Shown piece by piece: positions 6,089 through 63,635 of a stretch of DNA of 64,000 nt. Below the pieces are notes generated by a model that was given only the letters and a program-made list of their open reading frames with translations, was not told the DNA's origin and made no database searches. The DNA is from Eledone cirrhosa (lineage: Eukaryota). A program made the translations under genes and the position numbers. Numbering within the stretch: position 1 is the stretch's first letter; every line of letters starts with the position of its first letter. Location of the stretch: the NCBI GenBank assembly GCA_964016885.1, contig OZ024756.1, positions 39,122,001 through 39,186,000 of the forward strand, in the 5' to 3' direction.

Positions 6089-6241
<153 letters not shown>

Positions 6242-6450
6242 AAGAAAGTGTGATAAGAAACCAGGTGGACCATAACGCACCAGAGTACTCAATACTTAGA
6301 GTAGTAGAGTGGGTAATAGGAAAAGAGTCAGGACCCTGATGGCTGAGCTCCGTAGCTGTCGAAACGGCCGGAGCTCAGCCGTCGGGATGCTGACTCTTTT
6401 CCTATATATATCAATGATATTAACAAATCGAAACTATATTTATAAAACCA

Positions 6451-6516
6451 CATCCATTCCATTATATATACCCCAAGGGCACCAAAATCCTGGCACGCTC
6501 TCATCAGACAAAATAC
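6451..6516 (-). pseudogene. Inactivated hammerhead copy carrying clustered A-to-G changes (sibling of 34014-34076)
   Basis: CTGATGA retained, GAAA replaced by GGGG; aligns to 34010-34076 with 13 A>G differences on the minus strand. Confidence 0.8.
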
Positions 6517-7449
6517 AAAATTTGTTTTCTAAATGGTCACATACCCAAGAAACCAGACCCTATCGGTTCAGATTCAGCCTGGACAGTGAAAGAAAAACTC
6601 CAAATCCCCAGGATGAATATGTAAATGAGGTTGAAACATAAGGCCGAAAAAAGATCGCCACACCCAGACGCTAGGTAAATCCAAACAACTATTAGGAGAA
6701 TTTATAAAAGGCAAAAAGAGAGGCTAACATTAATGCTATGGTGTAAGAAAATTTAAGGAATGATTATAATAAAAAAATTATAGCTATAAATACACCATCA
6801 CCATCAAGATGGATTACATCAGTGATGGTGCAAAGAGAGTGATATAATTATATTTAATTATTTAATTATATAATCATATATTTCGGTAGTATCTACAAAA
6901 CAACATGAGAGTTAAGAATGTGCTGAAGTGGCAAAACACCAATTTAAAAAAAAAAGAAAAATTGAGATATACAACAAATCACGTGATCTATTCAAATCAT
7001 GAGTTAAAATATATAGACAATATCTACAAGCACACTTTAAGGTTGTGAGTATATTTTAGTCCATTATATTACAACGGGTTATTTATACAAGTATAAACAC
7101 TCCTGGTGAGCACACATGTTGTTATTTTCACTAGATAGATAAATTAAATGTTAAGGGTTTCGAAGAATTCTGTGTTCACACCCTCAATATATAGCTAAGA
7201 AAAGGACGTAGTTATAAATTTTATTTGAGATTATTTTTTACATTCAGATATACATATACATATACATATATATATATATATTAAAATATAAATATTAATA
7301 AAATAGATGTTCTTTTGATCAAAAGAACATCTATTTTATTAATATTTATATTTTAATATTAATAACTCCGGAAAATTATTTCTGGTAGAGTGCTTCCAAT
7401 CTACTGTAAAACTCATTCTTTGACATAATCATTGAATATCGTTTAACAC

Positions 7450-14609: not shown

Positions 14610-14653
<44 letters not shown>

Positions 14654-15067
14654 CGGAGGAAATGTGGTAAGGAACCAGGTGGACAATAACGCACCAAAGT
14701 ACTCAATACTTAGGGTAGTAGAGTGGGTAATAGGAACGAGTAGAACCCCGACGGCTGAGCTCAAGCCGTTTCGACGGCTAATTCTGGACTCAGAATTAGC
14801 CGTCGAAACGGCCTGAGCTCAGCCGTCGGGGTCCTACTCGTTCCTATATATATATATATTATTAGAAATGTAAGCTATCGCCGTATTTTGACTAAAGAAA
14901 TTAAAGAAATTATTTAGCCTGATAGTGGGGTTAAGAACCCTCGGAGAAATGGAAAAAGATGAGTATTGACTAAATAATTTCTTTCATTTCTTTAGTCAAA
15001 ATACGGCGATAGCTTACATTTCTAATAATTTCAAACCAACTCGCTGTTTCGAAAATATTCTTACTTG

Positions 15068-33688: not shown

Positions 33689-33933
33689 ACAGCCATCTAC
33701 TTAAATTCTTAGCACACACAAACACACATATATATATATAAGAAAGAAAGTGTGGTAAGAAACCAGGTGGAACATAACACACCAGAGTACTCGATACTTA
33801 GGGTAGTAGAGTGGGTAATAGGAAAAGAGTCAGGACTCCGATAGCTGAGCTTTGGCCATTTCGACAGCTAGATCCGAACTAAGCTAGCTGTCGAAATGAC
33901 CGGAGCTCAGCAGTCGGGGTCCTGACTCTTTTT

Positions 33934-33974
<41 letters not shown>

Positions 33975-34013
33975 ATATTAAATAAATGGAAACTATATAT
34001 ATAAAACCATATT

Positions 34014-34076
34014 TATTTTATTATATATATTTCAAGGGTACCAAGACACATTGGTACGCTTTCATCAGATAAAATA
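34014..34076 (-). ncRNA. Type I hammerhead ribozyme motif
   Basis: Minus strand: TATTTTAT-CTGATGA-AAGCGTACCAA-tgtgtc-TTGGTACCCTT-GAAA-TATATA-T-A-ATAAAATA; 8-bp stem I, 11-bp stem II with one mismatch, palindromic stem III. Confidence 0.85.
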
Positions 34077-34674
34077 CAAAGTTTGTTTTATAAATAGAGA
34101 CATACCCATGAAAATCATACCTTATCGGTTGAATATTCACTATCCAGTGAATATTCAACCGATAAGGTATGATTTATAGATAAATATATATATAGAAGTG
34201 GTTACACAACAGTTAGTTCACCATACCGAGGACAATTGTTTCACCTTACCAGATCCGCTAAGGTGAAACAATTGTTCTCGGTATGGTGAACTAACTGTTG
34301 TGTAACCACTTCTACCTAACTCGTCCCATGGACTAAGTGCTCTACCACTACGGATATTACCTTCCAGTGTTCCACCACTATATATATATTTAAGGCCCAC
34401 ATTGGTCACGAATGACCATGGTTTTGCACCATCTAAATATTGTATAACATTTTCAACAAAATATCTAAAGATTTTATCGTATTATATGAGGTAATTGAAG
34501 GGGTTCTTTATGTTCTGAATAGAAATCCCACCGGGGTCAACTTTGCTCTCCATTCTTCTCGAATTGATAAAATAAAGTACCAGTTAACCATTTAGCATTT
34601 TAACTGGTGCCATATCTGACCAGAATTCTCTCACCTCTTTCTGTTCAAACTGGCTGTAACTGGCTACTCATTAT

Positions 34675-46805: not shown

Positions 46806-48440
46806 TGAAAATGAAAGACATTTTGAAAGCAAAATATTGAAGAGAAATGCTATCACAGTATATATTTATTAAATATATAGAAGGCAGTCTACACATGCAA
46901 AACAAGTCAACTGAATATTACTAAGAGAGAACTCGTCAGTTGTGTCAAGAACATAACAACTTTCTTCCCTAGTGCTGGGGCCACAACAAAATACACCCAG
47001 TACATCCTGTAAAGTGATTGGTGTTAGTAAGGACATCTTACAATAGAAATCATGCTAAGACTGGAACATATGTAAGCAATATATGGCCCCTAGTCAGTTG
47101 AGGAGGACAATAGTACTGAGTAAGTTCTGACTTGGTTCTGCAAGGACTTGGGCAACGCATGCTAGCATGGAAAAAAAAGATGTTAAATGATGATGATGAT
47201 GATGATGATGATGAATATTTCACCACACAATACAGTTGATGTTTCAGTATTTCTAGAATTTTTTCAAGTATATAACACAAAATCTCACATTTTAATTTGT
47301 AACTAACCTTACTTACATTCTTGGAGAATAGAACAACGGTGACAAATTTTTTTGGAAAAAGAAAAAAGGTTTAAAGTACCGAATGTGATGACGGCACCAT
47401 CAAGAGTTATGGTTCCATAATAGCAGAACTGGTATAAATGGTAATATTATCTAGTGTTGTAGACCTACAGCACAGCTCCCATGACTTTTGGAAACATTTT
47501 TTCACGCTCACAGTTGCTGAATCATGAAACAAACTCCCTGCATCAGTTGTTAGCTGTCAAGACACTGCATCCTTTAAAACCTCCATGGAACAAACTCCCT
47601 GCATCAGTTGTTAGATGTTGAGACACTGCATCCTTTAAAACCTCCATGGAACAAACTCCCTGCATCAGTTGTTAGATGTTGAGACACTGCATCCTTTAAA
47701 ACCTCCATGCTTCTTGAGATTCGCCAACACTACACCTAATATTCACTCTCCATACACACGCACACATGTATATCATGACTCGTACACTATTCACTTCCCT
47801 GACATTTGTATATTATTCTATGTACTATGCATGCACCTTTGATGTACCTGAGCACTGTACACAATAATTTCATTATTATATTAACAGGACTTCATTTGGC
47901 AGATAAAAGATGAGTCTGTGATGTGTTACCTTGATTGATTTCAGTAAATAGTTTATTATATGTGTTTATTTGGGCGGTGGATTGGCAGTATCGGTAGAGG
48001 GTTTGACGCCATGCTTTCCAGCATAGTTACGTCCCTTTATGTTCTGAGTTCAAATCCCGCCGAGGTTGACTTTGCCTTTCATCCTTACGGGGTCGATAAA
48101 ATAAAGTACCAGTAATGCACTGGGTAATTGCTGGCCTTGTGCCTAAAGTAGAAACAATTATATGTGTTTATTTGTTATTGAAAGTTGTTATTTAAGTATA
48201 AACCAGATTTAACTCTTTAGCATTTAAACCGGCCATATCTGGCCAGAATCCTCTCACCTCTTTCTGTTCAAACTGGCTGTTTGGACTACATTATATAACA
48301 TATCCTTTCTATATTTAGGTTGTATGCTGTAGTGTAAGACAAATTAGGATAAGCATGTGGTTAGAATGTCTCAGGAAATAATCGCTGGACAGATCTGTAG
48401 CTTGGAGATCAGAGAATCACTCTAGAGCTGCTACTTCTCC

Positions 48441-48958
48441 AAATTGAGAGATCACAGCTCTGTTACTATGGGCATGTGGTTAGAATGTCTCAGGAAAGAA
48501 TCTCCGAATTGAGAGATCACAGCTCTGTTACTACGGGCATGTGGTTAGAATGTCTCAGGAAAGAATCTCCGAATTGAGAGATCACAGCTCTGTTACTATG
48601 GGCATGTGGTTAGAATGTCTCAGGAAAGAATCTCCGAATTGAGAGATCACAGCTCTGTTACTATGGGCATGTGGTTAGAATGTCTCAGGAAAGAATCTCC
48701 GAATTGAGAGATCACAGCTCTGTTACTATGGGCATGTGGTTAGAATGTCTCAAGAAAGAATCTCCGAATTGAGAGATCACAGCTCTGTTACTATGGGCAT
48801 GTGGTTAGAATGTCTCAAGAAAGAATCTCCGAATTGAGAGATCACAGCTCTGTTACTATGGGCATGTGGTTAGAATGTCTCAGGAAAGAATCTCCGAATT
48901 GAGAGATCACAGCTCTGTTACTATGAGCATGTGGTTAGAATGTCTCAAGAAAGAATCA
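48441..48958 (+). repeat. 65-bp tandem array derived from an RTE LINE segment, about 8 copies
   Basis: Units start at 48506, 48571, 48636, 48701, 48766, 48831, 48896; the unit matches the IERSQL..YGHVVRMSQE part of the RTE fragments. Confidence 0.92.

Positions 48959-51896: not shown

Positions 51897-63635
<11,739 letters not shown>

Follow-up and report, generated by a model that had tools for sequence, protein, structure and literature searches.

ADAR-type A-to-G hypermutation of avian retroviruses, reportedly seen in a cell-culture setting, involves the same mechanism as that which we propose here for elements of an animal genome. The cases reviewed are the U3 region of Rous-associated virus and an inverted repeat of avian leukosis virus, in which nearly half of the A residues appear as G in the reverse-transcribed, integrated form (PMC12925331). 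These are exogenous viruses represented by single isolates, whereas the present case concerns many endogenous, apparently inherited copies and a repeatedly edited lineage. APOBEC DNA editing of vertebrate LTR retroelements (PMC4866542, PMC2873906) is alike in that a host deaminase leaves fixed, strand-biased clusters that are found by comparing copies. APOBEC footprints, however, are G-to-A changes from cytidine deamination of cDNA (PMC4866542), while those described here are A to G, appear tied to duplex RNA, and lie in a Penelope-like element (PLE) of an invertebrate-type genome. Knisbacher and Levanon (2016) report invertebrates to be devoid of APOBEC DNA editing, and the word "ADAR" is absent from the text of their paper (PMC4866542).

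In octopus and squid, hyper-editing of double-stranded RNA (dsRNA) from repeats shows the same clustered A-to-G changes in inverted repeats with depletion of an upstream G, and it is exceptionally abundant in octopus (PMC5625713, PMC9068888). In those accounts it is reported in RNA only, whereas here it is written in DNA. ADARs are general in metazoans, and the upstream-G depletion is a hyper-editing motif common across animals (PMC5625713). The element type is likewise known. Hydra-clade PLEs are described with a C-terminal GIY-YIG endonuclease, a CxCX5C linker, a DKT motif, (TA)n targets, 5' truncation and inverted 5' arms (PMC8557442), and PLEs carry minimal hammerheads without helix III (PMC4209133). 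The elements treated below are alike in all these features, including a hammerhead in the pseudo-LTR (pLTR); fixed RNA editing of copies goes unmentioned in the accessible text of both papers. A 2016 review states that the roles of ADAR in retroelement subfamily evolution and in mutational suppression of retrotransposition have "not yet been determined" (PMC4982230). Full-text searches, with most subscription papers outside their scope, turned up no account of ADAR hyper-editing fixed in the germline, whether for PLEs or for any other endogenous non-LTR element.

A PLE copy with one-directional A-to-G change

The window, meaning the whole stretch analysed, comprises 64,000 nucleotides of the 3.0-Gb Eledone cirrhosa assembly. 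The features that concern us are as follows.

6403-7250, minus strand, 848 bp: 5'-truncated PLE copy of subfamily B (distal 3' UTR and pLTR), A>G hypermutated, delimited by end-to-end alignment to 20 sisters
6424-7195, minus strand: 74 A>G sites, 24% of the family's A positions changed
6455-6515, minus strand: candidate minimal type I hammerhead of the pLTR, damaged, recognised from sequence, alignments and family cores
6515-6508, minus strand: hammerhead stem I, 5' strand
6507-6501, minus strand: hammerhead core CTGATGA, unaltered
6500-6475, minus strand: hammerhead stem II
6474-6471, minus strand: hammerhead GAAA, reading GGGG
6462-6455, minus strand: hammerhead stem I, 3' strand, reading ATGGAATG
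33970-34140, minus strand: unedited pLTR fragment from subfamily A, a related one, whose hammerhead is intact (core 34068-34062, GAAA 34033-34030); a comparator and not the nearest relative
6226-6402, strand not assigned: separate hairpin-bearing repeat adjoining the PLE copy, with 2 A>G among 14 substitutions against 33742-33950

The window copy is 75-83% identical to its 20 sisters over its full length, and the best-scored relatives, at 88%, extend the match of the 6 kb copy to 6403-7250. Upstream of the part shared with the window copy, and in the same orientation, three longer sisters (L091, L092, L099) have reverse transcriptase (RT) and GIY-YIG frames. The strand that changed is therefore the element's sense, transcribed strand. 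Given its 5' truncation and lack of an open frame, the window copy is a dead 3' fragment with A>G on its RNA strand. Motif inspection places GIY-YIG C-terminal to the RT in the L091 and L092 frames and in P0001, the open frame of a related element described below. P0001 has RWR (for RWK), DKT, YRDD, CxCX5C, GIY-YIG, CxxC and CxH, the last two around the conserved E and N. In the L091 frame, which represents the family of the window copy, CxCX5C and CxxC are present and SRH replaces CxH, the part of the frame with RWK and DKT lying outside the sequence seen. GIY-YIG and RVT_1 occur in part of the members of the Atlas neighbours, and searches of the element frames against Pfam and the PDB gave no significant match. 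The PLE copies have a common 3' end in (TA)n, variable 5' truncation and often an inverted arm, and a 24-base pLTR motif occurs 49,048 times in the genome. By these sequence features the window copy is a Hydra-clade PLE. A Naiad identity was rejected because of the C-terminal position of the endonuclease and the presence of a hammerhead.

Several other repeats lie nearby. The very abundant hairpin-bearing repeat at 6226-6402 and 33728-33950 adjoins the PLE ends at 6 kb and at 34 kb alike, for which shared (TA)n targets are the probable reason, and has further copies at 562-749 and 14613-14878. Just past the 5' truncation point is a near-perfect, AT-rich palindrome of ~80 bases (7280-7360). Tandem arrays occupy 48349-48957 (65-base unit, ~98% identical) and 59286-59830 (degenerate unit of 66-94 bases).

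The family cores fit a minimal type I hammerhead, with CUGANGA and GAAA flanking stem II and stem I closing. The fold of stem II is conserved across four subfamilies, paired bases having changed in compensation, and GAAA is present in 140/140 matched cores of these subfamilies, at loci not chosen for G. Rfam hammerhead models gave no match in the window at gathering score and none in four loci at E <= 5. Fifteen CTGANGA...GAAA matches in the window, none detected by Rfam, are candidate minimal hammerheads of other PLE families (plus strand: 5853, 6042, 13682, 15357, 15936, 24974, 39155, 42227 and 55979; minus strand: 63347, 41454, 36082, 35407, 34068 and 15886). In the window copy an intact core is absent. 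The replacement of GAAA by GGGG, the changed 3' strand of stem I and the unchanged CTGATGA, all reported in an earlier sequence-only reading of this DNA, are plainly there. GAAA belongs to the established hammerhead core, and its loss is predicted to abolish cleavage of the window hammerhead. That reading described a hammerhead copy inactivated by the clustered changes. We see the loss of GAAA as a side effect in a 5'-truncated copy without an open frame: cleavage is not needed for PLE insertion in vitro (PMC11167929), which makes ribozyme inactivation incidental.

Compared with the 34 kb copy (33969-34135), the minus strand of 6410-6575 has 29 substitutions, 15 of them A>G, and across 6451-6509 A>G makes up every difference outside the stem II loop. 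Both the alignment and its one-directional change had been noticed from the sequence and hold. The 34 kb copy, with its intact hammerhead, belongs to another subfamily: its best 40 scored copies are 96-99% identical, which marks the subfamily as young, and the nearest scored copies of the 6 kb copy are 88% identical to it. We scored the window copy against the 20 full-length sisters of 29 fetched, at columns with at least 70% sister agreement. A>G is found at 74 of 310 positions and T>C at 2 of 334 (Fisher p = 2e-23); A>C occurs twice and A>T three times. A comparison across copies for strand-specific A>G excess and 5' bias was what the sequence-only reading had proposed, and A>G does exceed the other transitions, with C>T at 3/127 and G>A, the APOBEC-type change on the sense strand, at 1/55. 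Nor is G the family consensus: at 63 of the 74 sites no sister has G and at 11 one sister does, so that A was rightly taken as ancestral. Twelve of 13 sites that had been listed stand against the copy's own subfamily; position 6500 is G in 20/20 sisters, a subfamily state and not an edit, and 6489 had been missed. The skew, moreover, is not a local feature of the ribozyme region, since the 74 sites span 6424-7195.

Each of the 20 sisters carries 0-6 A>G changes. The 19 private changes of other types in the window copy fall within the sister range, so the A>G excess can be regarded as one event. The 5'-most 50 bases are unedited (0/21 A in the bin 7200-7250), and the adjacent repeat at 6226-6402 has no A>G skew, so that the hypermutation ends at the PLE boundary. 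A masked all-versus-all screen of the window and fetched loci (174,597 informative positions) found in the window copy the sole strong single-type cluster, with 71 of its 89 private changes of one type; the next best cluster had 8/14. An unmasked first screen was dropped, its 12 top clusters being A>G/T>C and those inspected being (TA)n versus (TG)n/(CA)n microsatellites. No sibling with the window copy's G pattern appeared among the best 40 scored candidates per search (best 88% and 84%).

How often an A is edited depends on the base before it: 38/132 after T, 32/116 after A, 2/36 after C and 2/21 after G (chi-square p = 0.009). The base that follows has no effect (p = 0.79). Hypermutation of TpA on both strands does not fit the 2/334 T>C, nor the fact that AA sites are edited as often as TA. 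Sparing of A after G, which the sequence-only reading had invoked, is not significant in the window copy alone (2/21 vs 72/284, p = 0.12), where the first A of GAAA follows G yet changed; it becomes significant when seven other copies are pooled, as described below. An inverted arm of at least 100 bases is present in 9/29 long sisters. The window copy has no inverted partner arm within the window, and, as it retains no partner, its duplex is assumed.

Edited relatives and the duplex

Four motifs with two G fixed gave 24 matches, of which 3 are the window copy and 21 are others. In six of the 21, A>G exceeds T>C at p <= 1e-3: L134 (36/138), L132 (27/123), L139 (19/38), L104 (16/81), L136 (15/68) and L131 (13/79), counts slightly inflated by the two G per match that the motif fixes. 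With L155, there are at least seven edited copies beyond the window copy. Six of these independent copies are listed here with their positions.

L155, G000:C2:369869612: edited pLTR copy of another subfamily, with a hairpin
L134, C2:234957315: edited pLTR copy of another subfamily
L104, C3:272185861: edited pLTR copy of another subfamily
L136, C4:151513604: edited pLTR copy of another subfamily
L139, C6:7476687: edited pLTR copy of another subfamily
L131, C7:31470636: edited pLTR copy of another subfamily

The other 15 matches are not significantly skewed at p <= 1e-3 and look like chance double mutants or light editing; from a 0.7% background, ~2.4 chance double mutants are expected for one motif. 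Borderline cases are L109 (8/76, p = 0.036) and L141 (p = 0.019), which stand outside the significant set. Among the 49,048 motif copies, the A>C counterpart motif had 0 matches against 15 for A>G. Five strong matches, at a joint chance of ~0.07 per site pair, suggest very roughly that some tens of copies are edited, on the order of 0.1%. Pooled over seven other copies, L109 included, the 5' neighbours are T 69/234, A 55/215, C 8/74 and G 2/63 (p = 7e-6), a count in which the motif had fixed two G in each copy.

L104, L132, L134 and L155 retain an inverted arm and have G on both arms. Since the arms of one strand pair with each other, the mismatches between them provide a test that is free of any reference: on the sense strand, G.U against A.C mismatches number 56:0 in L155, 38:0 in L134, 36:5 in L132 and 21:3 in L104. 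As a control, 34 inverted pairs found by plain similarity gave 52:50. Within L134 the edits number 36/108 inside the duplex and 0/28 in the 3' tail (p = 6e-5); for L132 the figures are 27/95 and 0/25 (p = 7e-4). Such confinement is predicted by a dsRNA-specific deaminase and not by polymerase or nucleotide-pool error. No partner arm is seen in the edited copies L136, L139 and L109, and the edits of L136 extend into its tail. The inverted arms of L131 and of L143/L144 (G000:C14:10346219-10346446) share the same G changes in mirror image. This fits copying from an already edited template during integration, of which it is a possible marker; arm-to-arm conversion is an alternative.

A T>C motif meant as a negative control matched instead the inverted arms of edited hairpins. 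Thirty of its 36 matches were fetched (L147-L176); one is L155 and 29 are a single L132-type hairpin within a larger element. That element is a young autonomous Hydra-type PLE with the edited hairpin in its 3' UTR, dispersed in ~35 copies (the 29 fetched and six further matches; examples are G000:C1:83202350-83202586 and C2:356331075). The copies differ by ~1% and are individually truncated or inverted. The open frame of the host PLE, P0001, has 828 residues and in L179, L181 and L184 runs along the strand that was edited; the hairpin itself derives from a different PLE, of subfamily D (1,681 marker matches), inserted as an inverted passenger within the host's 3' UTR. We considered whether the family is an active element with its own hammerhead destroyed, and rejected this, as the edited hammerhead is the passenger's and the host has a separate hammerhead-like end.

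The hairpin has 23 fixed A>G changes across the 29 dispersed copies. Its polymorphic sites are 31 A/G against 6 T/C (p = 1e-5), compared with 32 against 52 upstream, and at the 26 A/G-only sites that could be polarised the unedited relatives have A at 23, G at 2 and C at 1. The hairpin of this family is thus still gaining A>G, and the gain is confined to it. The four-gamete test fails at 35/120 informative site pairs in the hairpin and at 85/1,035 upstream, the upstream count being padded by one linked block; the failures in the hairpin would fit repeated editing of these sites, or else recombination. Two further observations concern the surroundings of the hairpin. Its (TA)n-derived flanks in L147-L176 are rich in TG/TATG on the edited strand; (TA)n is self-complementary, and it is a speculative thought that editing might turn TA into TG microsatellites. 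An open frame for a C2H2 zinc-finger array (L183:890-2053, minus strand) adjoins one hairpin-carrying PLE copy.

Origin of the G residues

Are the G residues present in sequence data other than the assembly? Public contigs carry part of them. Contigs X1 and X2 cover 6818-7145 (328 bases, 26 sites) in the G version with 3 differences (6857, 6906, 7059), none at an edited site; X1 also covers 6752-6847 (96 bases, 8 sites) with 0 differences; and X3, from a second sample, has the G version across 6784-6934 (151 bases, 14 sites) with 2 differences. The X1 pieces together span 34/74 edited sites. Among the contigs listed, none at 97% identity reaches 6440-6600, so that GGGG itself has no such support. 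The contigs represent two samples of one study, possibly including the assembled animal, with the library type not on record, and RAD-seq runs X5-X7 have 0, 1 and 0 reads at the locus. The differences at 6857 and 6906 are common to both samples, which suggests that the contigs represent another allele of an inherited insertion. At 6906 the sense strand has A in the window and in 18/20 sisters, and G in the contigs; this could be a further edit, the 75th, that one allele has since lost, or else a mutation of recent origin.

We propose, with a probability of about 0.88, that the RNA of the window copy was hyper-edited by ADAR and then reverse-transcribed into germline DNA. The sequence-only reading had suggested the same course for the element RNA, and it gains support from the change being on the sense strand and from the dsRNA dependence in other copies. 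Because PLE insertions frequently bear an inverted 5' arm, RNA read through such a locus would form a long, perfect hairpin; alternatively, antisense transcripts from the many copies could supply the second strand of the dsRNA. Of the A residues in both arms, ADAR would then deaminate about a quarter, passing over those preceded by G or C. The element's own RT would likely copy the edited RNA, reading inosine as G, and integration in a germline cell with 5' truncation at 7250 would follow, the hammerhead GAAA being lost as collateral damage. The mutation spectrum with its strand and polarity, the element type and, in other copies, the restriction to the duplex are direct observations; we infer the enzyme, the RNA stage, the germline setting and the tissue and, for the window copy, also the partner strand, which it did not retain. 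The finding that human L1 RNA was unedited by ADAR1 in cell culture (PMC5224506) counts against this proposal.

Error-prone DNA synthesis at integration could also give strand-specific changes limited to the insertion. Either filling of the second strand by a polymerase eta-like enzyme or reverse transcription at low dATP would place G opposite T on one strand, and the window copy does retain no duplex partner. DNA polymerase eta has an error signature with a 5' A/T preference, the WA motif, which matches the observed context. Yet A>G reaches 24% of the A positions in a nearly pure spectrum (74 A>G, 2 A>C, 3 A>T), the edits end at the duplex boundary in L134 and L132, and the continuing A/G variation of the 29-copy family is confined to the hairpin with none in the flank, all of which makes such synthesis an unlikely source. 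Less likely again is an adenosine deaminase other than ADAR, or ADAR acting on a DNA hairpin or an RNA:DNA hybrid during reverse transcription. ADARs do edit DNA in hybrids, in model substrates (PMC12925331), and the footprint does not by itself point to one enzyme; editing of the cDNA strand, however, would give T>C on the sense strand, seen at only 2/334, and both the restriction to hairpins and the sparing of A after G are as in ordinary dsRNA editing.

The direction of change might be questioned as well, since the sense strand of the family is poor in G (55 of 826 scored positions), as would be the case if the window copy were ancestral and the family master had undergone APOBEC-like G>A hypermutation. 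We give this next to no credence: four subfamilies share A, with GAAA in every core, the sets of G differ between edited copies, and the G.U versus A.C asymmetry within single hairpins, which needs no reference, already contradicts it. An assembly or sequencing artefact is just as improbable. Clusters of same-type mismatches are known in sequence archives (PMC2873906), and the core at 6440-6600 is outside the listed contigs, but X1, X2 and, from the second sample, X3 carry the G version, and 23 fixed G are common to 29 dispersed copies.

ADAR as a probable germline mutagen of PLEs

Beyond the window copy, we consider it probable, though less so than the editing of that copy itself, that ADAR is a recurrent and heritable germline mutagen of PLEs in E. 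cirrhosa. The PLEs would make their own substrate through their inverted arms; tens of independently edited copies would have become fixed; and one active, hairpin-bearing lineage would have been re-edited over successive rounds of retrotransposition, its dispersed copies constituting a fossil read-out of site-specific editing levels in the germline. It would also follow that target-primed reverse transcription can run to completion on RNA rich in inosine. The edited arms mark PLE integration intermediates, in that arms edited independently would both have been in RNA, and mirrored edits on two arms point to a single edited template as their likely common source.

If true, this would be direct evidence that retrotransposon RNA undergoes A-to-I editing in the cells that found the next generation, and that such editing is made heritable. 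It would also provide an assay, from an assembly only, of the activity and specificity of germline ADAR in an animal group noted for editing. Since the hairpin-carrying family kept spreading while it was edited, whether editing restricts retrotransposons or merely decorates them becomes directly testable.
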